Positions 46,040 to 62,695 of a DNA stretch of 64,000 bases are shown one piece after another (position 1 is the first letter of the stretch; each line of letters begins with the position of its first letter). The DNA is from a virus. Its lineage: Duplodnaviria > Caudoviricetes. The position numbers and the translations under genes were made by a program. The notes under the pieces are model-generated. The model saw only the letters and a list, made by a program, of their open reading frames with translations. It did not search any database and was not told the origin of the DNA. The stretch spans positions 1-64,000 of the IMG/VR virus record IMGVR_UViG_3300012973_001074; one strand, 5' to 3'.

Positions 46040-47044
46040 TCACGCCGCGAACACGAAGTCCAGGTACCGCATCGCGAGCGGCTGGTAGATCTTTACTCCG
46101 CCGCAGCGAGCGTGGCAGTTGTGGAGGAATTCGAAGACCTTCTGCTCGGGCGGCATGACCTCGAACTCCTGCGGAATGATCGCCTCGAGCACGTCGGGTG
46201 TCTTCCGGTACGAGATGGCGCGAGGCACGCCTCCGACGCCCGCCTTGTTGAGGCGGTGCCATGGTGCGATTGTCGTGATGTTCGGGTTGTTGCGGCGGAA
46301 GATCGTGAGGATCGACTCGCCCGTGAGCGCCGAGAACGGCGTCTGCTGGATGTAGCTGAAGTACCGGGTCGGCAGGAGGAGGGTGTCCGCCGCCCACTGA
46401 TTGTCGGAGTAGTTGCCGACTTCGGCCGCGAGGCGCGCGAGGTCAGCGAGGATGATGTCGGGGTCGAGCGGCGTCGTCGGCGGAGCGCCGGCGGCGGTGA
46501 GCCAGGCGCCTCCGCCCATGACGCCGAGCGCGGCGACGAAGGGGTTGTTCACGAGGCCGTTGAGGCCGACGTCCGGGAGCACGCCGTTCTCGTCGGCGAG
46601 CGAGCCGAACGCGAGGACCTCGTCGATGCCGCGCTCGATGAAGTCCGCGGCCGCGCGAGCTTTCGAGTCCGACAGCTGTACGCCGAGGCGCGCCGCTTCG
46701 CGTAGTTCGTTGATGTCCCAGCCGTAGGCGGCGCCGATCGGCGTCACCTTGCCGAGCACCTCCTCGGCCGCGACGTCGACGCGCGGGATGTCGTCGCTCT
46801 TGTACGTGATGAGCTTCGCCCGGCCGACGGGCTTCATGACCTTGTAGCTGTAGGTCGAAGCGCTCGCGGCGATGTCCGTCGCCTTCGGGGCAAACGTGCG
46901 CGCGAGCGTCGGCAGGAACGCGACTTCGTACATCTTCGCGCGCAGCTGCGTGAGCTCGCGCTCGAGGAACATCGTCTCGTTCGCGTCGAAGTGCTGCACG
47001 AGCGCTGCGCGCTGCAGACGCTTGTACTGGATCTCGTCGAGCAT
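46040..47044 (-). CDS. Major capsid protein (DUF2184-like)
   Basis: FLERELTQL...DIPRVD...GWDINEL...GLVNNP...ARCGGVKIYQPLA. Confidence 0.92.
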   Translation of the reverse strand: MLDEIQYKRLQRAALVQHFDANETMFLERELTQLRAKMYEVAFLPTLARTFAPKATDIAASASTYSYKVMKPVGRAKLITYKSDDIPRVDVAAEEVLGKVTPIGAAYGWDINELREAARLGVQLSDSKARAAADFIERGIDEVLAFGSLADENGVLPDVGLNGLVNNPFVAALGVMGGGAWLTAAGAPPTTPLDPDIILADLARLAAEVGNYSDNQWAADTLLLPTRYFSYIQQTPFSALTGESILTIFRRNNPNITTIAPWHRLNKAGVGGVPRAISYRKTPDVLEAIIPQEFEVMPPEQKVFEFLHNCHARCGGVKIYQPLAMRYLDFVFAA

Positions 47045-47229
47045 CTTTCGGGTCCTTTCGTGCGGACAAAGCGCCGCCGGCCCGGTGCGCAGCGAGGCGC
47101 CCAGGCTCTGAAGTCCTTGGTGATGAGAGGGAGCGAGAGAGCGGGGAAACGCGAACGCCCCGCGACTTCAGTGAGTCAGCGGGGCGTTGTTCGCGCGCGC
47201 GGCGATGTCCGCGCTACGTGTCGAGCGGC

Positions 47230-47718
47230 TTACGCGCCGTTGGGGCGGCCCGGGTAGTTGAGCTGCAGAACCGCGACGCCCGCGGCGCCGACGCCGCGAT
47301 AGACGCTGACGCCCGAGGGCTGCACCGCGCTTGCGTCGTCAGCGTCGTTGCGCCATCCGCCCTTCGTGCCCTCTCCTGCGAAGCGGACGAACGGAGTCGC
47401 CTGCGCGGCGATCGCCTGCTCCGTTGCGACCCAGACGCGGCCCTGCAGCATGACGGGCACGACGTCGCCCTGCTTGTGGCCCAGGCCGCTCGGACGCGTC
47501 GGGGTAGCGAGGGCGACGCCGCCCTCGCCATCGGTGACCTCCGCAGCGTCGTCGGCGAGCTCGCAGTAGCCGCCGCTCACGCGGACGTATGCACCGAAGG
47601 GAATGTCCTCCTGCGCGACGCAAGAGACCACGTCCTTCGGGCCCGTGTCGTAGATCAAGCCCGGGTAGCCGGCGCTCGGCTCCGCGGTGATCGCTGTCTG
47701 AACCACGTCGGCCATCAC
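47230..47718 (-). CDS. Head decoration/cement protein
   Basis: AGYPG...IPFG...VPVMLQGRVWV; between protease and capsid. Confidence 0.8.
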   Translation of the reverse strand: MMADVVQTAITAEPSAGYPGLIYDTGPKDVVSCVAQEDIPFGAYVRVSGGYCELADDAAEVTDGEGGVALATPTRPSGLGHKQGDVVPVMLQGRVWVATEQAIAAQATPFVRFAGEGTKGGWRNDADDASAVQPSGVSVYRGVGAAGVAVLQLNYPGRPNGA

Positions 47719-49841
47719 TTACCTCCGTTCATCTGCTGCTGGCCGGTTTGCCAGAGCGACGCCGCCTTCTGGTCGCGATTGCGGCGCGCTCGGCTGACCG
47801 GATCGTTGTCGTTGGGGGTGTCGAACGAGTCGAGGTTGTGCACCTCGCGGACGACTGCGCGACGAACGCCGTTGATGCCGTTCGCGTCGCGGACCTGCTC
47901 GATCATCGCGTCGTAGCGGCTGCGGACGTAATCGTCCGACTTGCCCTTGTCGTCGAAGTCGGGGTTCTTCTTCCGGATCGCGTAGAGCATGACCTCGCGA
48001 TCGCTCTTCGAGTCGAGCTTCTCGAAGGGGTTCTTCTTCTTCGTGACGGTCTTCTTCTTCTTCTTGCCGTCTTCGTCGACCTCTTCCTCCTCGACGACCT
48101 CCTCCTCCTCGTCTTCGTCGGCGGAGCCGAACCAGCGGGCGACCTCGGTGAGGAGGCGGACGCGCGAGCGGACCTCGGACTGCGTGCGCTTCTTGAGCTC
48201 GTCGGCGTCCTTGTCCTTCGCCTTCTGGGCGTCGGCCTTGAACTCGTCGAGCGACTGCTTCGCCGCATCGCGAGCGCCCTCGGCCTCGTCGGCGCGCTTC
48301 TTCTCGGCGCTGAGATCTGCAGAGAGCTTGTCGATCTTCGCCTTCGCGTCGTTGCGGACCTGATCGACCTCGCGCCGGTGCATGTCGTCGAGCTTGTCGA
48401 GATGCGCCTGCGAACCGACCTCGTACTCCCTGCCGTCGATGCGGATGACCTTCATCGTTTGCTCCTGTTCTTCGTCGTGGGACACGCCCCAAGGGGGCCC
48501 CTGGTTATCGAGGCGCAGTCCCACTTCGGGTCCGGCCCGACCTCGGTTCGGCGGACAGAGCGCCGCGTGGTTGTAACGGATGTCTCTCTGGATGCAGTCG
48601 AAGCGCTCACCCTCGTAGGTGCCGCTCGTCATCTCGAGGCGGCAGCGGTAGCCGCAGGAGATCTCGGAGCGATCGCCGGTCTCGATCGCGTCGAGCGTTT
48701 CGGCGTCCTGCACGATGAGGTCGCTCGCGATGAACTTGCCGTCCTGGCGGACGCGCGCGACGTGCCCGAGAGAGACCCTGCGCCACGTCTCCGGTGTGAC
48801 CAGGCCCGTGTGGTCTTTGATGTCGATGACGGGCGCGTGCTCGAGCGTCGCGAGCGAGTCGGCCTTGAAGACCTCTTCGGGGAGCCGGAGTTCGCGACGC
48901 TGTGTGCCGTCAGGGTTCACGTACGTGAGCACGCCGGTGCGCGTGAGGCGCGCCGGGACGCGTGCGCCGCCGACCTGCGTGCGATCGACCTTGCCGAGAC
49001 GTGAGCGATCGAGGCGGAGGACGAGCTCGCCGGAGTCGAAGCGACGCTGCTCGTCGGCGTCAGAGGTCCACCGGCCGTCTTCCTCACGGGGGACGTTCAG
49101 GTGGCCTTCGCCGCTTCCGCCAGAGCCGCCGGCGCCATTGCTCCTGGCCGCGGCGGTGTTTTCGTCGGCATCGGCACGCTGCTCGAGGGCAAGCCGCCGC
49201 TTGCGAGTCTGGTGCATTGCGAGCTCCCTTGCTGCTTCCGAGACGCGCCTGCGCATCTCCTCGTCCGTGGGCGACGCCGCTTCGTCAGCGGCGTCGAGGT
49301 CGTCCTCGTCGTCCTCGTCGTCCTCGTCGGGCTGCGCTTCTGGGTTCAGGAACGGCGTGCCCGCGTTCTCATCGAGCCCGATCGGAACGAAGGAGACCTC
49401 GACGAGGCGAGCAGCGGGCGAGGCTGCGCGCGTCGTCGCGGCGGGGTTGTCGACCTCGGCCTCGTCGTCCTCGGGCTCGTCCTCGTCCTCGGCGCTGTCG
49501 GCCGAGCCTTCTGGTCCGCCGTCGTAGCCGATCGATACGGAGCGGATGACGCCGTCCTTCACGCCCTGCCAGACCTGCTCGGCGAGCGGGTTGACGGCCT
49601 CGCGCGCGAACGTGACACGCATGCGCAGGCCTTCGGCGGAGGCCTCCACGTCGTTCGCGAGACCGATCGGGAGCTCGGCGGCGTCGTGTGCCCAGAGGAT
49701 GACTGGGTTCTTGAGGAAGCGCTCGAGCTCCCATTCGGTGATCTGCACGCCGTCGACGGGCTCGGGCGACGACGCGATGATCCATACCGAGCGCGTGTAC
49801 TCGTCGACCTTCGCGACGCGCGCGAGGAGGTTCTTGGGCAT
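47715..49841 (-). CDS. Prohead protease/scaffold with HK97-like protease domain, DUF2213 domain and coiled-coil scaffold
   Basis: KNPVILWAHD...PIG...RSVSIGY...LVEVSFVPI; then TRTGVLTY...RLPEEVF...EISCGY...QRDIRYNHAA....GRAG. Confidence 0.85.
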   Translation of the reverse strand: MPKNLLARVAKVDEYTRSVWIIASSPEPVDGVQITEWELERFLKNPVILWAHDAAELPIGLANDVEASAEGLRMRVTFAREAVNPLAEQVWQGVKDGVIRSVSIGYDGGPEGSADSAEDEDEPEDDEAEVDNPAATTRAASPAARLVEVSFVPIGLDENAGTPFLNPEAQPDEDDEDDEDDLDAADEAASPTDEEMRRRVSEAARELAMHQTRKRRLALEQRADADENTAAARSNGAGGSGGSGEGHLNVPREEDGRWTSDADEQRRFDSGELVLRLDRSRLGKVDRTQVGGARVPARLTRTGVLTYVNPDGTQRRELRLPEEVFKADSLATLEHAPVIDIKDHTGLVTPETWRRVSLGHVARVRQDGKFIASDLIVQDAETLDAIETGDRSEISCGYRCRLEMTSGTYEGERFDCIQRDIRYNHAALCPPNRGRAGPEVGLRLDNQGPPWGVSHDEEQEQTMKVIRIDGREYEVGSQAHLDKLDDMHRREVDQVRNDAKAKIDKLSADLSAEKKRADEAEGARDAAKQSLDEFKADAQKAKDKDADELKKRTQSEVRSRVRLLTEVARWFGSADEDEEEEVVEEEEVDEDGKKKKKTVTKKKNPFEKLDSKSDREVMLYAIRKKNPDFDDKGKSDDYVRSRYDAMIEQVRDANGINGVRRAVVREVHNLDSFDTPNDNDPVSRARRNRDQKAASLWQTGQQQMNGGK

Positions 49842-49855
49842 GCCTGACCTCGGAG

Positions 49856-51133
49856 TTAGGTGGCGGGCGGAACAAGCGGGCCGTTGGCGTAGAGGCGCAG
49901 GCTCGCGGTGACGGAGGACGCCGTCGCAGCAAGGAAGCCGCCGCCACCTGCGAAGACGTTCGCGGCCGCGCCGAGCCGGTGGCCGCCGTAGCGCCACGTT
50001 GCTCCCGCGTCGGGCGAAAAGACGATGTCTCCGAAGGCGCCCGCGGCTGCGCAGTAGAGCGCTCCGACCGTTCCGAGCGATCCGATCTCCACGCCGACTG
50101 CCCCGACTTCGGCGAAGCTCTCCCCCTGAGTGCTCGAACGGAGGACGCGAGAGACGCCGTTGCGCGACCACGCGCAGACGAACATGTCGAGCAGCTCGTC
50201 GTAGCGGAGCGAGAGCCCAGGCGGCGAGCCGCCTCCAATGAGGTGCTCGCCGCGCGGGGTCCAGGTCATCCCACCATCGTCGGAGGTCGCCCACCGGAGT
50301 GCGCCGGCGTTCGTGTTGGCGTGGAGCCAGACGAGGCGCCCCGATGCCGGATTGAGAGCGAGGAGGTTATCGGTGGAAGGCCCGCCGAACTCGGCTGGCG
50401 TAGTACGGGCGGTCCAGGCCGCAGCGTCAGGGCTCGTGAAGACCTTGGGCCCCGTCCCGCTGCCGTGAACCACGACCCATAGTGCGTGCACCGAGTCGTA
50501 ACGGACGGAGGGGCGATCCGCCACCACGCCCCCCGGCAGGACGGGTGCCGACCAGAGGTTGGTTGGGCTCCGCACATCGAGCGTGGCGGAGCCGTTGTTG
50601 GCGATAGCCACGAGCCCCGTCGGGGTGACGTCGATGTCGTGGCTGACGCGACCGCCAGCCGGAAGCGCGAGATCGGTCCACGCGCGCCCGAACGTTGCCG
50701 ACGAGCGTCCGGTGTTTGTCGCGCCGACGCCGAACCATGTGGAGAGCTCGGGCACGTACCGCAGGCGCCGATTGATCCCGTTGACCGTCACGGGCGCTCC
50801 GAAGTTGAGCGCTGGGAGGCTCCCCCAGGTGTGCATCCACTCCGCGCGCCGTGCGGCGAGCAAGGTCGTCATCTCGACCCTGTAGGCCGCGAGCTCGTCT
50901 TCGTCGTGGTTCTGGTCCTCGATGAGCGCGGAGAGGAGCGCGGCGAACTGACGGTCGAGCCAGTTGCGGTACTGGCCTCCGAACTGCCGCCCGGGACGCA
51001 TGCCTTGGCGAAGCTCGGCGAGCGACGGCTGGATCTTGACCGGGCTGTCGTCGACGTCGTCGCCGGCGGCCGCGAAGTTTATGTCCGTCGCGATCTCGAG
51101 CGCCTGCGACGAGTAGATTGGCTTGTCGCTCAT
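49856..51133 (-). CDS. Fibre-like protein with BNR/Asp-box beta-propeller, located in the head module
   Basis: N-terminal GMRPG...QYRNWL; repeated S.D.G.TW motifs. Confidence 0.65.
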   Translation of the reverse strand: MSDKPIYSSQALEIATDINFAAAGDDVDDSPVKIQPSLAELRQGMRPGRQFGGQYRNWLDRQFAALLSALIEDQNHDEDELAAYRVEMTTLLAARRAEWMHTWGSLPALNFGAPVTVNGINRRLRYVPELSTWFGVGATNTGRSSATFGRAWTDLALPAGGRVSHDIDVTPTGLVAIANNGSATLDVRSPTNLWSAPVLPGGVVADRPSVRYDSVHALWVVVHGSGTGPKVFTSPDAAAWTARTTPAEFGGPSTDNLLALNPASGRLVWLHANTNAGALRWATSDDGGMTWTPRGEHLIGGGSPPGLSLRYDELLDMFVCAWSRNGVSRVLRSSTQGESFAEVGAVGVEIGSLGTVGALYCAAAGAFGDIVFSPDAGATWRYGGHRLGAAANVFAGGGGFLAATASSVTASLRLYANGPLVPPAT

Positions 51134-51144
51134 TCGTTCGCGCC

Positions 51145-51529
51145 TCAGAAGGGCGTGATCGAGACGCCGCGTGTGGCGACCTCGTCACGGATGTTCGACC
51201 AGATCGTGTGGCAGCCTCGCGCCATCGCGAGCTGACCTGGTGAGAGCGGGACCTTCGGAATCGGGCCCCAGTACAGGACCTCGCAGGGCGCGCCTGTCGC
51301 GTGGCTCGCGAGCCACTTGCGGAGCGCGCGGACGACGGCGGGCGACGCCTTCGATGATCCAGGGCCCAGGTTCTTCGAGCCAGGTGGCGACCTCGGACGA
51401 GGCCGCCGACCATGCGTATGCGCCGATGAGATCGTCCGTGTGGCGCACGCCGAGGTTGAGGCCTTTGCCGAGCTCCTCGGCGAAGGACGTCTTGCCCGTG
51501 CGCGGGCCGCCGGCGACGAGGATGCGCAT
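51145..51529 (-). pseudogene. P-loop nucleotide kinase-like gene split by a frameshift
   Basis: GGPRTGKT...HTDD...WIIEGVA in one frame continues as VVRALRKWL... in another; tandem 4-bp duplication at 51337-51344. Confidence 0.7.
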
Positions 51530-51614
51530 GGTTTCGTGCGGATGCGAGCGCGTCCGCGGAGTCGTCGGGCCCCGGTGTTGTCAGTTGGCAATTCGGTCGG
51601 CTAGCGTGGATCGA

Positions 51615-52238
51615 ATGAGAATTGTCACTCTCGTCGGATTCGTCGCTCTGGTCGGTGCGTGCTCCAGGGGGAACGCCATTGGTCCCGATGACCGGCACCC
51701 GGACGGGCAGCAGAACCAGGACCCTTCGAAGGACGATCCCTCCGACCCTTCGAAGCCGACCCCGTCAGACCCTTCGAAAGCCGGGACGAGCGGTTCGCGG
51801 TTGAAGGCGCGCTACTACGAGGGCGAGGACGGCTCGAAGCAGTTCATCGGCTGGTGGGACTCGCAGCGGCAGGAAGACTGTGTGATGGTGCCAGCCAAGG
51901 ATGGGAAGCTGCGCTGCCTACCGGCGGCAAATGTCGCCATCACTGGCTACGCAGACGCGAACTGCAGCGTGCCTGTCGTGACGGTCCGCAAGGGCTGCGC
52001 TGCGCCGTCGGCGGCAATCGTTATGGAAACGTCAGGGAACGTATCCTGCAGCCTGGGATACGCGTACGCCGCGTACGGTGTAGACCCTGCGAAGTTCACC
52101 GGGACGTTGTACGGAGGCTCGCCTTCGACCTGTAAGGTCACAACGGGCGAACCGTACGCCGAAACCATGGATTTTCACCGACTCAGCTCGGAAATTCCTC
52201 CGACCTCGTTCGTAGCGGTGAACCAGACGCACGACTAG
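51615..52238 (+). CDS. Myxobacterial-type Cys-rich lipoprotein (moron)
   Basis: Lipobox LVGAC, DPSK repeats, SGSRLKARY...WDSQR.EDC...DGKLRCLP...YADANCS. Confidence 0.75.
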   Translation: MRIVTLVGFVALVGACSRGNAIGPDDRHPDGQQNQDPSKDDPSDPSKPTPSDPSKAGTSGSRLKARYYEGEDGSKQFIGWWDSQRQEDCVMVPAKDGKLRCLPAANVAITGYADANCSVPVVTVRKGCAAPSAAIVMETSGNVSCSLGYAYAAYGVDPAKFTGTLYGGSPSTCKVTTGEPYAETMDFHRLSSEIPPTSFVAVNQTHD

Positions 52239-53137
52239 TTGAGGCCGACTTCTTCGAGCTCGGGGAGGACGGGGTAGGCGATGCATCGGCAGTTGATGGG
52301 CTCGCCCGGGTGGCCCTCTTCGGGGTGACCGTCGGCCCACGTGAAGCGCGCGCCTTCGAGGTCCTTGTGCTCGGGCCGCACGCGCTCGTCGTTGCTCGTC
52401 GTCCAGATGTACTCATCGATGCCCGCAGCGGTTTGGCGCTCGCGGGTGATGTTCGCGTTGAGCGTGAGGATCTGGTCCCGCGCGAGCGCCTCGGCGCGCG
52501 ACAGCGTGACATCGTCGAGCTGGCGCGCGATCTCCTTGGCGAGCGTCTGCGCCGTGTGGCCTCGGCCCTCGCGAAGGATCCTCTCGATCTTCGCGAGCTG
52601 GTCCTTCTGCATGCCCGTGATGCGGGCGACGTTGTCCTTCCGCCAGCCGTCGATGAGCCACTTGAGGTGGGGCTCCTTCTCGACGTTGATCCCGAGGCGG
52701 GAGAACTCGCGCTGCGAGTGCTGCACGACGCGCTTGGCTGCGCGGTTCGATGTTCGTGAGAAGCCGGGTTCGTTGAAGGCATCGAAGCCTGCGAACTCCA
52801 GGTCCTCGAGAAGCTCGTCGAGCTCCGAGTCCTCGAGCAGCTCCAGGTCGAGATCCTCGAGCTCGTCACCCGGTGCATCGAGCCGCTCGGCAGCGTCGGT
52901 CTTCGTGACGCGGCGCTCAGCGGCGGCGGCGAGTTTTGGAAAGACGACCTTCCCGACGGCTCGTGCGAAGGCGGCCGCGATGCGGCGAAGCTCCAGCACC
53001 ATCATCAGCTCGGCCCCGCGCGGCAGTTGAGGTGAGCGGGTGCGGCGGACGGCGTTGCTGGGAGGGCGTTGGGTCCTCTTCGGGAGCCTCGGTCGGCGAG
53101 GCCTTCGCGGCGGATGGCGCAGTGCTGCGCGAGCCAT
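52235..53137 (-). CDS. Minor head protein MuF/SPP1 gp7, short form
   Basis: RAEALARDQ...YIWTTSNDERVRPEH...HPGEPINCRC. Confidence 0.92.
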   Translation of the reverse strand: MARAALRHPPRRPRRPRLPKRTQRPPSNAVRRTRSPQLPRGAELMMVLELRRIAAAFARAVGKVVFPKLAAAAERRVTKTDAAERLDAPGDELEDLDLELLEDSELDELLEDLEFAGFDAFNEPGFSRTSNRAAKRVVQHSQREFSRLGINVEKEPHLKWLIDGWRKDNVARITGMQKDQLAKIERILREGRGHTAQTLAKEIARQLDDVTLSRAEALARDQILTLNANITRERQTAAGIDEYIWTTSNDERVRPEHKDLEGARFTWADGHPEEGHPGEPINCRCIAYPVLPELEEVGLN

Positions 53138-53638
53138 TCATGCCTGCGTCGGCTCGTCGTCGTTGTTCGCTGCAGGCTCGTCGGTGTTTGCTGCAGGTTC
53201 GTCGCCTGGCGGCGCGGGGAGCGCTTCCGGCGGCGGCGGCAGAGGAGGGATCGGCGGCGGCTCGGGCTCTTCGGGCTCGCTCGGCTGTTCGGGCTGTTCG
53301 GGCTCAGGGTCGGGATGCTGGGCAAGCATCTCGTCGTCCACGCCTTCGAGCATGATCAGCGCGAGATTGTCGACCGGGTCATACGTCAGCGTGACCATGC
53401 CCGACGGTGGCTCGATCCCGCGCGCGCGCAGCACATCGACCAAGCGGGCAGCGTCGGCGAACGCGGCGGGCGAAACGAGCGTGTTCAAGAGCACGAACGG
53501 CTCGGTCGATTCGTCGCCTTCGGCGCTGCCCGTCGTGTCGAACGCGTTGCGACGCAGCCATCGCACGGTCTCACGAATGCCGGGATCGAGCGCGTCATAG
53601 TCGATCGGCGGCAATCCGCCGGGGCTTGCAGGCATCAT
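53138..53638 (-). CDS. hypothetical protein with acidic Pro-rich tail
   Basis: GGGAG RBS; LDPGIRETVRWL...FDTTGS.EG motif. Confidence 0.6.
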   Translation of the reverse strand: MMPASPGGLPPIDYDALDPGIRETVRWLRRNAFDTTGSAEGDESTEPFVLLNTLVSPAAFADAARLVDVLRARGIEPPSGMVTLTYDPVDNLALIMLEGVDDEMLAQHPDPEPEQPEQPSEPEEPEPPPIPPLPPPPEALPAPPGDEPAANTDEPAANNDDEPTQA

Positions 53639-53674
53639 GGATCGTGCTCCCTTCGAGGTCGGCGCTGACTCCCA

Positions 53675-53696
53675 ATTGAACGTCGATTGAATGTCG
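53675..53696. promoter_or_regulatory. Tandem 11-bp repeat in a divergent promoter region
   Basis: ATTGAACGTCG ATTGAATGTCG in an AT-rich gap between divergent genes. Confidence 0.5.
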
Positions 53697-53765
53697 AAAA
53701 ACGAAAGAAAGTTCGATGGTTGACTGTGTCTGGCCTCGTCGGCCATCATCTGCGTCACGACGAAG

Positions 53766-54299
53766 ATGACGAGCAAGACGAAGACGAAGACGAGGCCGAA
53801 GACGAAGACGAAGGCGAAGGCGAAGGCGAAGGACCCGTTCGACGACTTCCCGGCGCGCCTCAAGGCGGCGCGAGAGCGGTGCGGGTATGGAGTGAACGAG
53901 CTAGACCGGCTCGTGGGCGTCTCCGTCGGGCAGACCTCGCGGCTCGAGCTCGGTGCGCGGCCGCGCGTGAGCATAGAGACCGTCGCGAAGTTCGCGCGCG
54001 TTCTCGATGTCACCATCGACTGGCTGTGGAACGGACCGGTCCCTTCGGGAGGAGTGAAGGTCCTGCAGCGGGGGGCTCGGAGGGAGCCGCGTTACGTGCC
54101 CTCGACCCTGCGGCGAGCCATCGGGAGGCCTCTTGAGGAAGTCGCCGAGAAGGCGGGTATCGGACTGACCAATGTGGCGCGCGTCGAGGCCGGGGAGAAC
54201 GCGACCCTCGCGGACCTCGCGGGCTTCGCCAAGGGTATCGACATGAAGCTTGAAGTCGCCTTCGTCGCAGGCGAGCGGCGCTACCGCATCGACGTGTGA
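53766..54299 (+). CDS. Double-HTH XRE-family regulator
   Basis: Two HTH_3-like units (RLKAARERCG...SRLELG; LEEVAEKAGIG...ARVEAG); N-terminal (KT/KA)n repeat. Confidence 0.8.
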   Translation: MTSKTKTKTRPKTKTKAKAKAKDPFDDFPARLKAARERCGYGVNELDRLVGVSVGQTSRLELGARPRVSIETVAKFARVLDVTIDWLWNGPVPSGGVKVLQRGARREPRYVPSTLRRAIGRPLEEVAEKAGIGLTNVARVEAGENATLADLAGFAKGIDMKLEVAFVAGERRYRIDV

Positions 54300-54516
54300 G
54301 CCGGCTCTTGCGCGACCGCGATGGCGTTCGTAGGTTGCGACGCCTCGGAGCCCACACGCAAACTGTCCTCGGTAGGCGAGGGCTGCTTTAGGGAAGCAGA
54401 TGCGCCGGTGCGACTCCGGCCTCGCGCTCCGAGCACTCGGTCCCGCTGGCAGACGCTGGCGGGGCCGTCGCGTGTCGGGGTTGAGTCCGCCTGGAATTCG
54501 CGATGGACTTGCGGCA

Positions 54517-55167
54517 ATGGAGTCCGCCGTCATCACTGCTCTCGCTGCGATCGGCGGCGTGGTCCTTGGTGCATACCTGACACGGAAGAACGCCTTGGCC
54601 GTCGCCGAACTGTCGGCGAAGACGGCACGGGAGCAGGAGCTTGAGCGCGAACGGAGAGCGCTCGCCCGCGACCGGCTGGAGCGGCAGTTCGAAGCAAGGC
54701 TCGCCGTGCAGCGATTCGTTCTGAACAACTTGAACGGCCCTGGTTGGTCGGACCCGGGCGTCCGAGAGGAGGCAGCTCAGATTGCGGGACGGGTAGCATC
54801 CGCCTTCACTGCGCCACGCTTCGCAGCGTTCCTCTACGAGGTGCTCTTCTACGAAGTCGCGCTCCCGATCCGTCCTGGAATGTTCCAGAAGGCGCCACGA
54901 ACGATGACGGAGAGCCAGCTCTTGGCGCTCTGGAACCGAAGCGACAAGGAGATGTTGCGCGTCATCGAAGAGACGGTGCGCGTGTCCGGCTATGGCGAGC
55001 TGGAGATCCCGAAGGTTCCTTCGAAAGATGAGGCAGTCAAGGAAGCGCCGCGGACGCGAATCGCGTCCCTGTCCGCGGCGTCCGCGAGCGAGCCAACTGC
55101 AGCAGACCCGGAGGCTTCGGAGGAGGCGGCAGCGCTATCGGACTCGCGGCGCGCTCGGGGCGGCTGA
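54517..55167 (+). CDS. Membrane-anchored hypothetical protein
   Basis: N-terminal TM (AVITALAAIGGVVLGAYL) plus coiled coil. Confidence 0.7.
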   Translation: MESAVITALAAIGGVVLGAYLTRKNALAVAELSAKTAREQELERERRALARDRLERQFEARLAVQRFVLNNLNGPGWSDPGVREEAAQIAGRVASAFTAPRFAAFLYEVLFYEVALPIRPGMFQKAPRTMTESQLLALWNRSDKEMLRVIEETVRVSGYGELEIPKVPSKDEAVKEAPRTRIASLSAASASEPTAADPEASEEAAALSDSRRARGG

Positions 55168-55306
55168 GCCGGGCTGTCATGCTGGCGCTTCGCTTTCGGA
55201 CGCGGTGTCTGAAACCGAAAGCGGCCCAGAAAGCCCGTCATTTCGCCGTGTAGCGCGACCGGTCGCCGCGCGGTACACTTCTAGTGGACCCGGAAGGAGG
55301 GTCTGG

Positions 55307-55498
55307 ATGAATGCGAAGTCCCCGAAGACGGTAGAGGCACCGAAGCCAGGCAAGTCGAGCCTGGACATGTTCAACGAGGCCTACGCGAAAGCGATGGCCG
55401 AGGAAGCCGAGGAGACCGAGAACCTCCCGAAGGCCTTCACGCCGGAGGAGAGCCTGGTCGAGGTCGTGGACGACGACGACAAGCACTTCGGCGTCTAG
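55307..55498 (+). CDS. Small acidic protein convergent with the zeta-kinase gene
   Basis: AGGAGG RBS; 63 aa; stop overlaps the stop of 55495..57447. Confidence 0.65.
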   Translation: MNAKSPKTVEAPKPGKSSLDMFNEAYAKAMAEEAEETENLPKAFTPEESLVEVVDDDDKHFGV

Positions 55499-57447
55499 CC
55501 GCCGCGTTTCCTCTGCAGCTTGACCTTGTGGCCGTTGGCCGCGTCGTAGACCGTGAGGTTCGGCGCGGCCGCGTGAATTTTGTCGCGGGCCTTTTCGATC
55601 TTCGCGTACGTGCCGCGGATGACGTGCTCGGGCACGTAGCGCCCTGAGCCCTCGGCGCGCGAGGCGGCGCGCCGGACGCCCTCGTCCGGGTTCAGGTCAG
55701 GGTGGTGCACGTGGACGTCGTAGCCCTTCGCTTCGAGGTGGTTCATCAGCGCGATGAACTTGTCGGCGTTGCCGCCCGTGCCGTCGATGATCACGTGGTG
55801 CCCGCGGTCGACGGCGCGGTCCCGGATCTGCTTGGCGACGGCGCTCGACTCCTCGTGCACCTGCGCGGCCGCGCCTCGGAACGTCGGGCCGGCGCTCGGG
55901 TCCTTCGGAACGCTCGCCTTGTACTCGGGGAGCTGGGACTTCACTTCGTCCGGATCGACGTGGACGAAGCGCGACGTGTCGAGACCGTGTTTCGCGAGCT
56001 TGCCGAGCACGACGCCTTTGCCGCTCGCCGGTCCGCCCATCGTGAGGATCGCGATGGGCTTCTCGCCGAGCTCGCCGGCGGTCTTCTTGCCATCGAAGGC
56101 GGGCGCGATGAGCTCGCGTTCGTGAAAGGCGGCGCGCTCGGGCGAGGGCTTGCCGCCTTCGTCCGGGTGCTTGTCGTAGTGGTCCTTCCAGGTCTCGTTG
56201 CTCTTGCCCATCAGCTGGCCGGACCACGAGCCGTCGGGGTTCTCGGTGCCGACCCAGGTGCGACCGGGCTTGAGCGGTTCGTCCTTCGCCGGGGCGGGCT
56301 GCTTCTGCGCGCTCGGCGGGACCTTGTCGTGCGTGCTCGAGAAGTCCCCCGCGGGCCCGCCGCTGCCGCCTCTACCACCGACCTTGTGCAGGCCCGGGCC
56401 GGGCGGTCCCTCGCGGTCGCTGCCGCCGCTGCCGGAGCCGATGCTCGTCCAGCGTCCCTCCTCGTCGCGCGGAACGCCTTCCCACTCGTCCGCGTCCGTG
56501 CGCTCTTCACCCGCTTCGAGACCGAATTGCGCGGCGAGCTGCCTCCACGCCCATTCGAGCTGCTTGTCGGTGAGCTTCGGGTTCTCGCGCTTCGCCTCGG
56601 CGAGCCACTGACCCTTGTACTTGCGTGGGTTCGCTGCGAGCTCGTCGAGGAACTCGTCGCGCGCACGCTTTTCCGTGTCGCTCACGCCCGGCTTCGCATC
56701 GGTGCGCGTCTTTTCGAGGCGCATCGTGACGTAGTCGGGGTGATCGAACCGGTCGTAGTCCCAGTCGGTCGCCGCGTACTCAGAGTTGAACGCATCGCGC
56801 GTCGCCTCCTTGAAGCCGACCTTCTCGTAGAGCTTGTTGAGGGTCGGCCCGTAGCACTCGACGTAGTTGACGCCGTAGTTGTCGACGACGTGACGAAGGA
56901 GCTCGACGCCGATGCCCTTCTGGCCACCCTGGTTGAAGAGCGCTGTCGCCTCGATGCGCCCGTCACCGTGGTCTTTGACCGCGACGCCGGCCTTGCCGTC
57001 GGGGCTCATGACGCAGCTCATCTTCCCCAGGTCTTCGACCCCATAGTGCGAGACGTGATGCTTGAACGGGGAGTCCTTGAACGCAGAGTCGAAGGCCGCC
57101 TTGAACTTGTCGGCCTTCTCGCGCACGGGCGAGACCGCGGCGCGCGCGCCCTCGGCGCTCTTCCAGTCGCCCGAGCTCGAGCCGCCGCCCTTGCCGCCGG
57201 GACGGTGCACACCGATGCCCGCGTCGGTCCCCGCTGAGGTGTCGCCGCCGCTGCTCGTCCAGAGGCCCTTCTCGTCGCGCGGGACCTCCTCCCAGCCTTC
57301 GGCGTCCGTGCGTTTCTGCTGCTTGTCGCGAGAGCCGGTGAGCCCTTCCTGCTCCTTCCTGGCCGCCGCGCCGGGCTCGGGCTCGTCGCCGTCGAAGACG
57401 AAGCCGCCGAGCTCGGACGAGATGAACCGGTCCGCGCGCGTCGTCAT
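55495..57447 (-). CDS. Polyvalent protein: GNAT-like acetyltransferase, small helical domain, zeta-toxin-like P-loop kinase
   Basis: KGIGVELL...LNKLYEKVGF (GNAT); GGPASGKG, VDPDEVK, VHEESS, IIDGTG, RA...GRYVP (zeta). Confidence 0.85.
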   Translation of the reverse strand: MTTRADRFISSELGGFVFDGDEPEPGAAARKEQEGLTGSRDKQQKRTDAEGWEEVPRDEKGLWTSSGGDTSAGTDAGIGVHRPGGKGGGSSSGDWKSAEGARAAVSPVREKADKFKAAFDSAFKDSPFKHHVSHYGVEDLGKMSCVMSPDGKAGVAVKDHGDGRIEATALFNQGGQKGIGVELLRHVVDNYGVNYVECYGPTLNKLYEKVGFKEATRDAFNSEYAATDWDYDRFDHPDYVTMRLEKTRTDAKPGVSDTEKRARDEFLDELAANPRKYKGQWLAEAKRENPKLTDKQLEWAWRQLAAQFGLEAGEERTDADEWEGVPRDEEGRWTSIGSGSGGSDREGPPGPGLHKVGGRGGSGGPAGDFSSTHDKVPPSAQKQPAPAKDEPLKPGRTWVGTENPDGSWSGQLMGKSNETWKDHYDKHPDEGGKPSPERAAFHERELIAPAFDGKKTAGELGEKPIAILTMGGPASGKGVVLGKLAKHGLDTSRFVHVDPDEVKSQLPEYKASVPKDPSAGPTFRGAAAQVHEESSAVAKQIRDRAVDRGHHVIIDGTGGNADKFIALMNHLEAKGYDVHVHHPDLNPDEGVRRAASRAEGSGRYVPEHVIRGTYAKIEKARDKIHAAAPNLTVYDAANGHKVKLQRKRGG

Positions 57448-60365
57448 TGGACCTCCTCGGCATCGATGAGAAGACGCGGCGGGCGACCGATCTCGAGGTC
57501 GACCTGCGCGTAGCTTTCGCGCTTCACCGACCTGATCCGGAACCGTGTTCCCTTCGGGAGGAGGACCTCGGCTTCGTTCTGGTACTCGGACGCGCCGGAG
57601 ACCGTGACGCCGCTCTTGTGCTGCACGCGAATCACGGCATCGAATCCGTGGGGCAGGACCGCTGCGGTGGCGCCGCGATCGAGGTCCTCCTTTTCGAGGC
57701 TCGCGAACTGGGTCGCGACGTCTCGGTGATCGGAGAAGCTCGTCATCGAGTCGAGCGTGAACGTCTGCGAGTTGAGCATCTTCTCGACGACGCGCGGCGG
57801 GACCTGCTTGAGACCGCGGTAGACGGTCCCTGGCGTTGGGGGCACGTCGCGGAAGATGCCGTTCAGGTGCTCGATCGCCTGCTGCGCGCGCTCGGTGTGG
57901 TCCGCCGCGGACGAGGCCCCGTGCAGGAACTGCTTAGCGAGCTCCTCGGGCGTGCGGACGTGCTGGTCGCCATAGCGATCGGGCTGGGAGCGATACAGCG
58001 TCCCGGCTTCGTTCAGCGTGTAGCCGGACTCGGCGATCCGCTGGTCGAGATGCGCCTGCGTCGCGCGCGTGACCTCTTCGGGATCCGCTCCCGATTCGAG
58101 CTTGCGGATCGAAGTGTCGTAGCCCTTCGTGTACTGCGAGAGCGCATCGTAGTGCTCATCGCGGAGCTTGCTCGCGACGGCCTCCGCAGCGTCGAGGTGA
58201 GCGCGCTCGTTGAACGTGTTGCGCGTGTCTTCCTCGGTTGCGGCCTGCGAGCGGATGACGCGCGCGAGGGCCGCTCTCTCGCTCGCTCGCTCTGCAATCG
58301 GAGGCGGCTCGCCATTCTTGAAGAGGTGCTCTTCGTCGAAGTCTGCGAGCGCCTTCGCCTGCTCGCGCGACAGGCCGCGTGACTCGAGGCGATCGATTCG
58401 CTCGGCGACGTCGCCTGATACGCCCTCGCTCTCGACGATGCTGCTGATGCGCGCGCTCTTGTCGCCAGACCGAGGCTCAGAGCTCGAGTCACCGTCCTTC
58501 GGCGTGAACCGGCCCCCATCGGGCTCGCCAGCCGGCACGCGTTCGACGTTCGCCTCGTCCCAGTCGTCGGTGCGGACCGCGTCGTCGAGGAAGCGGATCT
58601 CGGTCTTGCCGCCGTGTCCGTGGATCTCGCGGACCTCGTCGAGCGAGTCGAAGAGCGTCGTCGAGCGGTGCTTCGTGAGCCAGCGCATGGCGACGGTGCC
58701 GTCCTCGAAGACGGCTCCGTGAGCGACGACGCCGGTACCGGAGACGCCGGTCTCGTCCTCGATGCGGTAGAGCTCGAAGAGGCGCGGACCGCTCGTCGCG
58801 TCCGTGCGCACGCGCGCGCGCTCGTAGTCGTCTTGGGTCGGCTTCGGCTTCTGCGCGACGCCGGGCGGAAGCTGCGGGGGACCTCCCTGCTGGGGGCCTC
58901 CCTGCTGCGGGGGACCTCCCTGCGGGGGCGGACCTCCCATGCCCGGAGGGGCGCCCGGTCCGCCCATCTCCGTCGGGTCGGGCGGGTTCTCCATTTGCTC
59001 GAGGTCGGCCTCGAGCACGGCCTGGCGCGCCTTGATGGCGTCGTCGGAGAGCCGGACCTCGTCCTCGAAGCCGCCGGCGATGCCGAAGCGCGCGATGGCG
59101 ACCTCCTCGGGCAGCAGGACCTGGGCCTGGATGTACGTCGAGTCCCGCTGCGCGATCGCGCTCTGGCGCTGCGCCTGCACGAGCGGTGTCTCGGTCCAGA
59201 GCGGGGTGAACTTGACCGTGAGCGACTTTGGCCGCGTGCGCGTCGGCGACGCCTTCGACTGCAGCCAGATGACGAGCAGGCGCCGGATCTTCGGCGCGAG
59301 CATCGTCGTCTGCTCGGCGCGGATGCGGTCGTAGAACCAGCGGAAGTCGCTCTCGCCCGTGGCGTTCATGCCGGCGGGCGACTGGCCCATCAGGATGGTG
59401 ACGGGGATCTGCACCGCCGCGGCGAGGCGGAGCATGAACTTTTCGAGCGTCGCGGGGATCTCGCTGAACGAGACGGAGTGCCGCGTGAACTCCTCCTTCG
59501 CGTCAGCATCGACGACGATGGCGCGCATCACCGAGCGGTAGAGCTCGATGATCTGCAGGCGCGCCTGGAGCTTCGCCTGCTCGTTGGCGCCGATCATCTC
59601 GGCGAGACCGGTCATCTTGAAGATGGCCTGGTTGCCGTCGGTGAGCAGCGTCTCGACGGCCGCCCATCCGGTGTTGAACGAGCGCAGCACGTTGTACGCG
59701 CGCTGCAGGACGGACATGTCCCAGCCGAAGAGCTGCTGCCGCTCGCGGATGCCCGTCGATGCTCCGCGGAAGAGGATGAGCCGCGACTCGTGGACAAGCA
59801 TCGTCGGCGACGACTTGGCCCCGGCCGCGGTGACGGCGTACGTCTTGGGCGTGCCGAACTTCGGGCCCGGTTCCTCGTAGAAGTCGACGGGCCAGAGAAG
59901 TCGGCGATCGAGCGGGTAGAGCCACTCTACGTCGTTCGCGCGCGCGGGCTTGAGCGGCTTCCAGGCCTCCTGGCCGTCGTCGGCACCGATGAGGACGGCG
60001 CCGCCGCCGTAGCAGCGGCCCCACTTGGACCCTTCTTGGAAGTTGCCGCGGACGTCGAGCGCGTCGAACTTCTCCTGGATGACCTCGTCGAGCTTCGGGT
60101 CGCCGGTCTCGATCGAGAACGGCTCGCGAAGCATCTCCTGCGGGACGACGTCGACCATGCGCGCCGCCATGTCGTCTGCGTGATAGAGCGCGGAGAGCTC
60201 GACATCCTCGAGCATCCGGTTCGGTAGGACGTAGCCGTAGGTCGTCTTGTCGCGCGCGGTGCCGAAGCCGGTGACCTCGTTGATCCACGCGTCGAAGCGC
60301 GACGTAGCGCGTGCGCGGAAGGCGCCGAGCGCCTCGCGCATCTTGATCGACGCGGAGTTCAGCAT
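57444..60365 (-). CDS. Portal protein (DUF1073-like) fused to a small domain and a C-terminal ADP-ribosyltransferase
   Basis: Portal: AARMVD...WGRCYGGG...VHESRLI...IPVTILMGQSPAGMNATGESD; ART: VYRG, TSFS, QNEAEVLLPKGTRFRI. Confidence 0.9.
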   Translation of the reverse strand: MLNSASIKMREALGAFRARATSRFDAWINEVTGFGTARDKTTYGYVLPNRMLEDVELSALYHADDMAARMVDVVPQEMLREPFSIETGDPKLDEVIQEKFDALDVRGNFQEGSKWGRCYGGGAVLIGADDGQEAWKPLKPARANDVEWLYPLDRRLLWPVDFYEEPGPKFGTPKTYAVTAAGAKSSPTMLVHESRLILFRGASTGIRERQQLFGWDMSVLQRAYNVLRSFNTGWAAVETLLTDGNQAIFKMTGLAEMIGANEQAKLQARLQIIELYRSVMRAIVVDADAKEEFTRHSVSFSEIPATLEKFMLRLAAAVQIPVTILMGQSPAGMNATGESDFRWFYDRIRAEQTTMLAPKIRRLLVIWLQSKASPTRTRPKSLTVKFTPLWTETPLVQAQRQSAIAQRDSTYIQAQVLLPEEVAIARFGIAGGFEDEVRLSDDAIKARQAVLEADLEQMENPPDPTEMGGPGAPPGMGGPPPQGGPPQQGGPQQGGPPQLPPGVAQKPKPTQDDYERARVRTDATSGPRLFELYRIEDETGVSGTGVVAHGAVFEDGTVAMRWLTKHRSTTLFDSLDEVREIHGHGGKTEIRFLDDAVRTDDWDEANVERVPAGEPDGGRFTPKDGDSSSEPRSGDKSARISSIVESEGVSGDVAERIDRLESRGLSREQAKALADFDEEHLFKNGEPPPIAERASERAALARVIRSQAATEEDTRNTFNERAHLDAAEAVASKLRDEHYDALSQYTKGYDTSIRKLESGADPEEVTRATQAHLDQRIAESGYTLNEAGTLYRSQPDRYGDQHVRTPEELAKQFLHGASSAADHTERAQQAIEHLNGIFRDVPPTPGTVYRGLKQVPPRVVEKMLNSQTFTLDSMTSFSDHRDVATQFASLEKEDLDRGATAAVLPHGFDAVIRVQHKSGVTVSGASEYQNEAEVLLPKGTRFRIRSVKRESYAQVDLEIGRPPRLLIDAEEVQ

Positions 60366-60442
60366 GCGAAGCCCTCGACGGGAGATGGAAGGGACCTGCG
60401 CACGCCCAAACTGGTAGGGAGGCGCGCGCGAAAGCCGCGGAA

Positions 60443-60754
60443 CTATTTCGGCGCGTTCAGCGGGCGGCGGCGCATCCGCTCGATGCGTCGCCGCGTCTGT
60501 TCGAGTCCCCGCGAGATAGCCCTCCGCCGATCGTCAGGGCTGAGAACGCGAAAGGAGGCAGCACCGGTCGGCGGAGGAGTCTCAGAGATGCGCCGCGTCG
60601 GCGGTGGCTCGTCGTCGTCGCGGCAGCCGACGAGAGCGCGGAAGCCTGGGGTGCACGGGTCGCGCGCGTCGCACGAGAGCGCGAAGCCTGCGCCGCTTTC
60701 CGGCCCGCACGTGCAGTCCTCGCCCATGTCGCAAGTGAGCGCGTGGACCTTCAC
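60443..60754 (-). CDS. hypothetical protein
   Basis: GTGA overlap with the terminase stop. Confidence 0.45.
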   Translation of the reverse strand: MKVHALTCDMGEDCTCGPESGAGFALSCDARDPCTPGFRALVGCRDDDEPPPTRRISETPPPTGAASFRVLSPDDRRRAISRGLEQTRRRIERMRRRPLNAPK

Positions 60755-62139: not shown

Positions 62140-62695
62140 CCGGTGGTCCCTGCTGCTCGGGCGGCGGCGGCGGCGGTTGCTCGAGCCACGCGGGATCGAT
62201 GGGCGCCGGCGGGACCGTGACCTCGCCGACGGCGGGGCCTCGCGCGCCGTGCTCGCCGAAGAGCTCCCGCACGAGGCGGGCGGCCTCGACGACCGTGGGC
62301 GCGTCGCCCATGAGCGGGCCGCCGTTTGCGCCGGTGAGCTGCTGCTGTTTCGGCGCGTCGAGCCCGAGGTACGCGGAGATCCGCGTCTGGATGGCGAGCA
62401 TCCGGTCGATGGCGGCGAGCTCGCCACGCTGAGCGCGCTGGTAGAGACCGCCGCGCAGGACCGCTTCGAGCCTCGCGACCTCGATCCAGCGCTGCTCGTC
62501 GACCGTCTCGTTCGCCTCCTGCCGGAGTCGCTCGACTGCCTTGCGGAACACCTTGAAGGGACCGGACGCGTTCGCGTAGCCGAGCTCCTTCGCGATCATC
62601 GACCACGTGAGCCCGGCGCGCCGGCGCTGGATGATCGACTCTTCGAGCTCGAGGTTCGCGACCTCGCCCGCGTCACGCTTCGACGTGTTGCCCAT
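62075..62695 (-). CDS. Putative terminase small subunit
   Basis: N-terminal HTH (GLTWSMIAKELGY), LGLDAP, LTGANGGP; directly upstream of terL. Confidence 0.75.
   Translation of the reverse strand: MGNTSKRDAGEVANLELEESIIQRRRAGLTWSMIAKELGYANASGPFKVFRKAVERLRQEANETVDEQRWIEVARLEAVLRGGLYQRAQRGELAAIDRMLAIQTRISAYLGLDAPKQQQLTGANGGPLMGDAPTVVEAARLVRELFGEHGARGPAVGEVTVPPAPIDPAWLEQPPPPPPEQQGPPDEASESSGAGAGEVPASAPRE

Follow-up and report, generated by a model that had tools for sequence, protein, structure and literature searches.

Head module and its proteins

The DNA analyzed here (the window, 64,000 nucleotides) comprises the opening 64 kb of a provirus record of 115.5 kb in IMG/VR (IMGVR_UViG_3300012973_001074; 94% complete according to CheckV, GC content ~68%). 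A structural module of a myophage, of E217/Pam3/PB1 type, lies on the minus strand of the window between ~36.6 and 64 kb. In the head proteins of this module a short motif, R-x-D followed by a small residue, recurs at the borders between modules, and we regard it as the probable cleavage site of the phage's own maturation protease. Two of the proteins that carry it are polyproteins, in which enzyme modules are joined to the portal or to one another. The coordinates of all features are collected in Table 1.

The gene order portal, MuF, (425-aa gene), protease-scaffold, cement and capsid was found in the window and in six related head modules from metagenome contigs (loci L010 and L012-L016), which were aligned gene by gene; counts given below as 7/7 refer to the window together with these six. 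A search of IMG/VR with the protease returned only distant loci (L001-L009), of which just L001 was used, in one alignment. The homologous sequences are related to one another, and the conservation counts are not independent events. The domain calls made in an earlier note on this DNA were upheld by Pfam (Phage_portal_3, ADP-ribosyltransferase, Zeta_toxin, Phage_Mu_F, Peptidase_S78, DUF2213, cement and Major_capside), the acetyltransferase call being weaker, as described below.

Table 1. Features of the head module and of the PB1 comparison (a slash marks the putative cut; aa, amino acids)
Feature	Position	Strand	Basis or remark
Large terminase	60751-62139	(-)	gene order of locus
Portal polyprotein, 973 aa	57444-60365	(-)	Pfam: Phage_portal_3 (PF06381) and ADP-ribosyltransferase
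Putative leader cleavage site, R23-F-D25 then A26	60288-60299	(-)	border of variable leader and conserved portal core
Putative site directly before Acb5, R520-T-D522 then A523	58797-58808	(-)	homologue alignment
Acb5 (anti-CBASS 5) domain, ~78 aa, A523-D600	58566-58799	(-)	PF26761
Putative post-Acb5 site, R598-T-D600 then D601	58563-58574	(-)	R-[TA]-D-G or R-T-D-A there in homologues
W-D-E...P-x-x-x-x-G-R-F variant before ADP-ribosyltransferase module	58506-58562	(-)	sequence, homologues
ADP-ribosyltransferase module	57492-57968	(-)	PF03496 E 1.4e-6; PF01129 E 2.8e-4
Second polyprotein, GNAT-like/zeta, 650 aa	55495-57447	(-)	Zeta_toxin E 7e-27
Putative site R46-T-D48 then A49	57301-57312	(-)	followed by module-start motif
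W-E-E-V-P-R-D-E-x-G-x-W and Gly-rich linker	57259-57300	(-)	after R46-T-D48 site
Putative site R248-T-D250 then A251	56695-56706	(-)	translation; after GNAT-like module
Putative site R316-T-D318 then A319	56491-56502	(-)	ahead of zeta kinase; followed by module-start motif
Second P-R-D-E-x-G-x-W and Gly-rich linker, before zeta kinase	56449-56490	(-)	after R316-T-D318 site
Island between GNAT/zeta gene and MuF	interval 53138-55498		mostly plus-strand genes, 53.7-55.5 kb
MuF head protein, 300 aa	52235-53137	(-)	Phage_Mu_F E 8.5e-21
Putative site K-T-D/A	52892-52903	(-)	MuF N-terminal linker
Putative site R-L-D/A	52874-52885	(-)	MuF N-terminal linker
425-aa protein	49856-51133	(-)	between MuF and protease
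Protease-protease-scaffold protein, 708 aa	47715-49841	(-)	Pfam Peptidase_S78 and DUF2213
Putative site R-A-D/A	49167-49178	(-)	linker between protease-fold domains
V-P-R-E-E-D-G-R-W motif	49062-49094	(-)	protease-scaffold linker, after R-A-D-A site
R-L-D/N directly after DUF2213 fold	48504-48515	(-)	disordered tail of model; proposed protease/scaffold release site
N-L-D/S	47826-47837	(-)	~35 aa from scaffold C-terminus; proposed tail-removal site
Cement (decoration) protein	47230-47718	(-)	PF22758
Major capsid protein (DUF2184/Major_capside), 334 aa	46040-47044	(-)	PF09950 E 8.4e-45
Putative capsid maturation site, H18-F-D20 then A21	46982-46993	(-)	[HN]-F-D-A, residues 18-21, 7/7 loci
PB1 A-M-D-S, portal	NC_011810: 1331-1341		
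PB1 A-M-D-S, DUF2213-scaffold tail	NC_011810: 6363-6373		
PB1 A-M-D-S, capsid	NC_011810: 7401-7411		

The portal polyprotein consists of a leader, the Phage_portal_3 domain, a linker rich in Pro, Gln and Gly, an Acb5 domain, a further linker and an ADP-ribosyltransferase (ART) of the R-S-E type. The domain behind the portal fold, described previously only as small, was identified further as Acb5, with PF26761 as a precomputed match on the window's own portal and matches at E <=1e-5 in relatives. Acb5 is a homotetrameric nuclease which cleaves 3'3'-cyclic GMP-AMP (cGAMP), blocking the cyclic oligonucleotide-based antiphage signaling system (CBASS), and residues R10, W38 and H61 are catalytic in Acb5A (bioRxiv 10.1101/2025.07.12.664507). 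The homologue alignment of the domain revealed an invariant Arg, a Trp and two His, spaced roughly as these published residues. By its sequence the portal C-terminus is an ADP-ribosyltransferase of the R-S-E type: PF03496 scored 28.3 bits on this segment against a cut-off of 23.4, in a match that spans only the E-x-E region, and the Arg, an S-x-S-like Ser-rich stretch and the E-x-E (E-A-E) are readable in the module. Portal homologues with 43-66% identity in the portal domain carry varied C-terminal extensions (Acb5, zeta, RelA/SpoT, NUDIX, HNH), and of 120 listed portal homologues, 38 have Acb5 as their first C-terminal module.

The start of the second polyprotein gene overlaps the portal stop as ATGA at 57444-57447 (minus strand) and has a GAGGAGG ribosome-binding site of its own 6 nucleotides upstream. 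The encoded protein comprises a leader, a GNAT-like module, a helical module of ~65 residues and a zeta-toxin-type kinase, the latter matching profile positions 13-189 of 199 of Zeta_toxin (PF06414) and having a G-x-x-x-x-G-K-G P-loop. The assignment of the GNAT-like module is weak: Acetyltransf_7 matched at E 0.012 and 16.4 bits, under the cut-off of 27, Atlas scores were <0.9 with acetyltransferase clusters only at ranks 18-30, and a Q-x-x-G-x-G-like motif is present. The IMG/VR search found no close relatives of the GNAT/zeta protein. In L015 and L012 the portal reading frame continues into the GNAT-like or zeta modules, and the ART of L013 is a separate gene; modules that are fused in some loci and free in others therefore move between the two forms. 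Such shuffling of ART, zeta, GNAT-like and Acb5 modules between portal fusions and genes of their own would be expected of packaged polyvalent proteins, and the layout of these proteins, with portal, Acb5 and ART in one chain and GNAT-like and zeta modules in the next gene of a head operon, was found here.

A tandem prohead protease fold fused to a scaffold

The 708-aa protein contains an S78-like domain (~49347-49841), a linker, a DUF2213 domain (~48516-48977) and a coiled-coil scaffold. Its start is most likely M152 of an 859-aa open reading frame (ORF), in line with the starts of its homologues. The full 859-aa reading (47715-50294) was rejected, since it opens with an Arg/Ser/Pro-rich stretch that represents an artefact of out-of-frame, GC-rich sequence.

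The two domains were modeled with AlphaFold2, and VIA-align was used to compare the models with 48,161 PDB chains. T4 gp21 (5jbl_A) was the top match of the N-terminal S78-like domain (Z 11.0 over 129 residues, root-mean-square deviation (rmsd) 3.6) as well as of the DUF2213 domain (Z 13.2 over 143 residues, rmsd 2.6), followed in both cases by herpesvirus proteases at Z 5-7. Foldseek alone gave a weak match to T4 gp21 (E 0.016), and PDB sequences yielded no match when searched with a profile of the N-terminal protease domain. In the alignments His52 and Ser103 of the N-terminal domain and His75 and Ser126 of DUF2213 are invariant, the Ser standing in an S-x-G-Y context. As modeled, both domains thus have the prohead-protease fold of T4 gp21, arranged in tandem, and the DUF2213 protein is by its predicted fold a protease-scaffold fusion. 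The earlier designation of this gene as a protease is borne out, with the correction that it encodes two such domains, DUF2213 included. DUF2213 has lately been renamed after gp24 of Pa193, a "putative scaffolding protein" to its authors, who did not discuss a protease.

Three conserved motif positions were observed in this protein. The linker between the two protease-fold domains, which has R-A-D-A in the window, shows R-T-D-[AS] in 4/6 related loci and in the alignment consensus. Directly after DUF2213 there is L-R-[LF]-D in 7/7 loci, with L173, R174 and D176 invariant, and the predicted local distance difference test (pLDDT) score of the model is <50 from residue 165. At the column near the scaffold C-terminus x-x-D-[AS] is found in 7/7 loci. 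The proposal that RFD/RLD motifs flank DUF2213 holds for the R-L-D behind the fold, which lies in a disordered tail; the R-L-D at the start of the domain is placed by the model in the first beta-strand and not in a linker.

The R-x-D motif at module borders

Re-reading of the window translation recovered, on the minus strand and at the positions in Table 1, all motif copies listed in the earlier note. Enrichment was evaluated with 1000 per-protein shuffles of the head proteins (3,508 aa) and of the other window proteins (15,520 aa). Head proteins contain R-T-D-A 4 times against 0.12 expected, [RK]-T-D-A 5 times against 0.23 and R-x-D-A 10 times against 2.3, and none of the 1000 shuffles reached as high a count for any of the three. 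In the other proteins R-T-D-A was absent (0.39 expected) and R-x-D-A occurred 4 times against 8.1 expected, so that the motif is enriched in head proteins only and depleted elsewhere. In the whole record, the DNA pattern for R-T-D-A occurs in frame within a called gene solely at the four head sites. Among 8,000 patterns of the form a-x-b-c, R-x-D-A was the top non-low-complexity pattern in the window and two related loci; the single-locus p-value (~1e-4) fails correction for 8,000 patterns. The loosest form, [RKH]-x-D, is mildly enriched in head proteins (54 vs 39.6 expected), and some of the listed copies may therefore be due to chance. In addition, two of the four R-T-D-A copies lie within an internal repeat and are therefore not independent. 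Taken by itself, the motif evidence from the window is suggestive, not decisive; the motif becomes convincing because it is conserved in homologues.

Alignment of the homologous loci revealed that the motif is kept at the same spots of the portal, MuF, protease-scaffold and capsid proteins of relatives. The strict Ala after the Asp assumed previously did not stand, the consensus being R-x-D and then A, G or S. At the portal N-terminus, the Arg and the Asp are each at least 90% conserved in 26 homologues, and the aligned loci have R-x-D-[ASGT]-W (once N-x-D) where the leader of variable length meets the conserved core. As a separate observation, the portal frame upstream of the ATG (60366-60533, minus strand), which has no ATG, GTG or TTG start, reads R-T-D-A-A-T-H-R-A-D-A. 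The same DNA also forms the end of a possible small Cys/Arg-rich ORF in another frame, with its stop at 60443, and the pair of motifs could be due to chance, be left over from a once longer leader or mark a frameshift link.

Directly before Acb5, [RKH]-x-D falls within 9 residues of the domain in 32/38 Acb5-bearing portal homologues, as compared with 4.6% of the remaining-linker windows (binomial p ~4e-37, a value that overstates independence as the sequences are related), and three further homologues of the 38 have x-x-D-A there. The flanking linker shows no other conservation. R-[TAL]-D-[GA] was also found before the NUDIX module and before many copies of the second motif described below. 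The presence of the motif does not hinge on which module comes next: Acb5, NUDIX, GNAT-like, zeta, RelA/SpoT and HNH modules all have it in front of them. In the second polyprotein there is, besides the three R-T-D-A sites, an R-A-D at residue 4, and standalone zeta homologues start exactly at the position following the Asp, the equivalent of A49.

MuF proteins carry R-T-D-A, K-T-D-A or R-A-D-D in their variable N-terminal linker in 7/7 loci. MuF homologues at E up to 0.001 number 370; an alignment of 44 MuF homologues (down to 34% identity) gave the consensus R-x-D-A with at least 90% conservation of the Asp, forming an island between unalignable stretches. The retention of four residues in linkers which have diverged past alignment clearly indicates selection on the motif itself. 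In most homologues R-x-D-A is preceded by a conserved, very Arg-rich leader (R-R-x-P...I-P...A-R-R...S-P); the long MuF start at 53137 is therefore real, and an alternative start at M45 was rejected for the same conservation. In the capsid protein, K-Q-D-A of a solved homologue aligns at the position of the putative site, and a cut between D20 and A21 would leave 314 aa, compared with 318 aa in the mature PB1-type protein.

The view that the motif marks module borders of procapsid-internal proteins was thus sustained as to conservation and position, and has to be narrowed with regard to some copies inside folded parts, namely the R-L-D in strand 1 of DUF2213 and an R-N-D-A of the cement protein. 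The latter belongs to a conserved folded part of an outer-surface protein and is probably not a site.

A second motif at module starts

A few residues after many R-x-D sites a second motif was observed, W/F-D/E-D/E ... (H)-P-R-D-x-x-G-R/K-F/W followed by a Gly run (the G-R-F element). It stands at the very N-terminus of standalone zeta homologues (P0001-P0026) and opens the free ART gene of L013 (L013:12276-13151), behind a short leader ending in R-F-D. Of 43 copies altogether, 28 show [RKH]-x-D in the 14 residues preceding them. In more distant polyvalent proteins the G-R-F element is retained behind another upstream sequence (K-x-F-N/D-P); the two elements can therefore occur apart and evolve separately. 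No Pfam family lies on this motif, and the polyvalent-protein paper (PMC5512222) was not found to describe it.

The G-R-F element may be a packaging signal. Its combination with the cleavage motif could constitute a joint "address and scissors" code, in which the G-R-F element would serve many unrelated phages and polyvalent proteins as a general peptide for loading cargo into capsids and R-x-D-small would be the clade-specific cut of a DUF2213-type, Asp-directed protease; we put this forward tentatively and with less than even expectation. If it were true, any enzyme could be plugged into a portal, a MuF protein or a free gene and be delivered pre-made, Acb5-like immune-signal nucleases would act before phage gene expression, and the cargo of mature virions could be predicted from sequence across thousands of uncultured phages.

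Cleavage after Asp in PB1-like phages

Experimental support for Asp-directed cleavage comes only from PB1-like relatives. PB1 (L017, NC_011810) and the window share the portal, MuF, DUF2213 and cement families, the PB1 portal having a C-terminal InPase domain, and the DUF2213 proteins align by BLASTP around the Ser motif (E 7e-6). Residues 61-68 of the PB1 capsid protein are S-A-M-D-S-N-F-T, and the N-terminus of the KPP12 capsid protein determined by Edman degradation is SNFTAPV (PMC3474789), meaning that the mature PB1-type capsid protein begins at S65, right after D64. In agreement with such trimming, the cryo-electron microscopy (cryo-EM) model of E217 includes only residues 66-382 of the capsid and 97-528 of the portal.

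A-M-D-S occurs in frame in PB1 at residues 74-77 of the portal leader, at residues 398-401 of the scaffold tail and in the capsid protein, which makes 3 matches in 18 kb, as against 0.38 expected in any frame. A-M-D-S thus looks like the Pbunavirus maturation site, which is not stated in the literature searched. Cleavage after Asp with a small following residue is real in this module family and involves the same three kinds of places as in the window, i.e., capsid, portal leader and scaffold tail. Given the KPP12 cut after Asp and the common DUF2213, Asp-directed head processing is experimentally anchored in the module family. Nothing on cleavage was found in literature on DUF2213, DUF2184 and DUF1073, and capsid processing is not discussed in the Pam3 structure paper.

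Proposed processing and alternative explanations

We consider it probable that the phage's own maturation protease, a serine protease of the gp21 fold, recognizes and cuts R-x-D where a small residue follows (A, G or S, in some cases N, T or D). Within the procapsid this protease, whose S78-like and DUF2213 domains are joined to the scaffold, would cleave exposed R-x-D-small sites behind the Asp. These cuts would trim the leaders of the portal (between D25 and A26) and the capsid protein (between D20 and A21), remove or separate the Arg-rich leader of MuF, free the protease from the scaffold at R-L-D/N and clip the scaffold tail. The portal C-terminus would release the ~78-aa Acb5 and the ADP-ribosyltransferase, and the second polyprotein would release the GNAT-like module, the small helical module and the zeta-type kinase. 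The freed modules would remain in the head and later pass into the host together with the DNA, a route suggested for polyvalent proteins (PMC5512222). Once released, Acb5 could also assemble into its tetramer, a step that lasting attachment to the 12-mer portal would presumably hinder. The earlier proposal that effector polyproteins are resolved by Asp-directed cleavage is, in this form, partly supported by the conserved border motif, the gp21-fold proteases and the PB1-type cleavage, and is modified by the weak GNAT assignment and the broader consensus. For the window phage we infer the cleavage at its sites, the packaging of the second polyprotein and the ejection.

Several points weigh against cleavage. 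The PB1 site agrees with the window site in the Asp and the small next residue and lacks the Arg; the capsid proteins of PB1 and the window gave no BLASTP alignment, and the positional homology of the two capsid sites consequently rests only on matching mature lengths. Six of the 38 Acb5 junctions have no basic residue at the third position before the cut, and the R-x-D before Acb5 could belong to the N-terminal segment of Acb5 itself, whose published catalytic Arg is residue 10. The copies in folded parts of the cement protein and DUF2213 mean that the motif alone defines no site. Finally, a docking motif that is never cleaved would show the same pattern of conservation.

Docking of this kind, in which uncut R-x-D-A/G would tether cargo and head proteins to the scaffold, protease or portal and the polyproteins would stay intact in the virion, is in our judgment unlikely. 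Conservation and linker position suit a binding motif as well as a cleavage site, the virion RNA polymerase of N4 and some plasmid polyvalent proteins are transferred full-length (PMC5512222), and the missing density for the portal C-terminal domain of E217 could reflect flexibility instead of a cut. On the other hand, the pattern resembles protease subsites, the Asp being nearly invariant, the next residue small, the second residue upstream basic and the intervening one free. The motif also stands at the N-termini of capsid and portal, which are places of trimming in other phages, the first residue of standalone homologues corresponds to the one behind the Asp, and a PB1-type capsid protein is really cut after Asp. 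Moreover, Acb5 works as a free homotetramer, which is hard to square with a permanent tether to a 12-mer portal.

The motif might also have no function of its own and merely be the upstream edge of the G-R-F/Gly-run element or of the Acb5 fold, spread by module shuffling. Two of the four R-T-D-A copies in the window do belong to a repeated unit, and 28 of the 43 G-R-F copies have the motif nearby. We nevertheless find this quite improbable, given that R-x-D-A occurs without G-R-F in the MuF linker (44 homologues), at the capsid and portal N-termini, behind DUF2213, before NUDIX and, in the window, after the GNAT-like module, and that distant proteins combine G-R-F with the other upstream sequence. 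Chance, finally, would mean that a GC-rich genome favors Arg, Asp and Ala codons and that the pattern was picked post hoc, in keeping with the weak enrichment of [RKH]-x-D, the single-locus p-values that fail correction and the in-frame yet untranslated R-T-D-A/R-A-D-A pair upstream of the portal start. This is hardly credible, as non-head proteins of like composition are depleted, not enriched, and the same spots are conserved in dozens of homologues with unalignable flanks; the homologue alignments effectively refute it. Cleavage by the phage's own protease hence remains the explanation that we favor.

Neighboring genes

The longest reading of the terminase ORF (60751-62427, minus strand, 558 aa) opens with an Arg/Ser/Pro-rich stretch typical of out-of-frame GC-rich sequence, and M97 is the likely start from sequence composition alone. 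The island between the GNAT/zeta gene and MuF holds a Cro/C1-type helix-turn-helix (HTH) protein at 53766-54299 (HTH_31, E 1e-15), ORFs of 216 and 63 aa and a Pro/Glu-rich minus-strand ORF at 53138-53638; relatives have small variable genes at this position too. The 425-aa gene shares a conserved N-terminal stretch of ~100 aa with L010:13077-14333, L012:14698-15981, L013:15042-16349 and L015:10318-11586. Its C-terminal part is BNR/Asp-box-like in the window and L015 or a long Gly-rich repeat in L010, L012 and L013. R-x-D-A is absent from the 425-aa product.

Significance and comparison with known systems

If the proposed processing is true, the contents of mature virions would be readable from sequence in a large clade of E217/Pam3/PB1-like head modules, whose portal homologues number in the hundreds. 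Anti-defence enzymes would be made as portal- or MuF-linked polyproteins, cut in the procapsid and present before phage transcription; these would include an anti-CBASS cGAMP nuclease, an ADP-ribosyltransferase and a zeta-type kinase, and in relatives NUDIX and RelA/SpoT enzymes. The protease codes of T4 and phiKZ are Glu-directed, and an Asp-directed member would join them. DUF2213 would be re-annotated as a protease-scaffold fusion, and phage heads could be loaded with foreign proteins after the example of this natural system.

Effectors that are packaged and processed, such as Alt and the internal proteins of T4, are already known, as are polyvalent proteins fused to portal or MuF, Acb5 and the N-terminal sequence of the KPP12 capsid protein. 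The literature searched did not contain an R-x-D-small code common to structural and cargo proteins, a statement that DUF2213 phages have Asp-directed specificity, a description of DUF2213 as a protease of the gp21 fold standing in tandem with another protease domain, portal-borne Acb5 cargo, or the module-start motif.

In T4, gp21 cuts after Glu (Leu/Ile-x-Glu) in capsid, scaffold and internal proteins and in Alt; in lambda, the portal N-terminus is trimmed, converting gpB to gpB*; and the herpesvirus assemblin has release and maturation sites of Ala/Ser chemistry. The window module resembles T4 in the gp21 fold, the acidic residue before the putative cut, the use of one short motif across capsid, scaffold and cargo, and the ART as putative cargo of the R-S-E type. 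It differs in a putative site that has Asp, and a basic residue two places ahead of it, where T4 has Leu/Ile-x-Glu, in predicted cargo arranged as multi-module polyproteins, one of them portal-fused, and in two tandem protease-fold domains fused to the scaffold. With assemblin and lambda it shares the protease-scaffold fusion, with one conserved putative site after the fold and one near the scaffold C-terminus, and the proposed removal of a portal leader; the Ala/Ser site chemistry of assemblin is different, and herpesvirus proteases are only distant fold matches. The packaged-effector biology of T4 is also treated in PMC5512222.

The Pbunavirus phages (PB1, KPP12, E217, Pa193) have in common with the window a Phage_portal_3 protein with a C-terminal enzyme domain, MuF, a DUF2213-scaffold fusion and cement. 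Their capsid protein is cut after Asp, and the ends of their portal and the N-terminus of their capsid protein are invisible in cryo-EM. PB1 differs from the window module in having DUF2213 only and no S78-like domain, a site A-M-D/S without Arg, and a portal InPase in place of Acb5 and ART.

Polyvalent proteins of phages and conjugative elements (Iyer, Burroughs, Anand, de Souza and Aravind 2017, PMC5512222) are similar to the proteins described here in being multi-domain effectors (ART, zeta-type kinase, GNAT, NUDIX and others) that are fused to portal or MuF or lie next to them. Packaging and delivery upon infection are predicted for them, and processing has been proposed. For this processing the paper proposes zincin-like metallopeptidase domains, in difference to the gp21-fold protease considered here, and within the text searched no linker cleavage motif, prohead-protease code or P-R-D-x-x-G-R-F element is named; Acb5 was then not yet known. 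The Acb5 literature searched was not found to mention fusion to a portal or packaging in virions. The portal domain of the window shares PF26761 with the described Acb5 and has invariant Arg, Trp and His spaced roughly as the catalytic residues of Acb5A, and whereas the described Acb5 is a short free homotetramer, the domain stands here as the first module after the portal, behind an R-x-D site.

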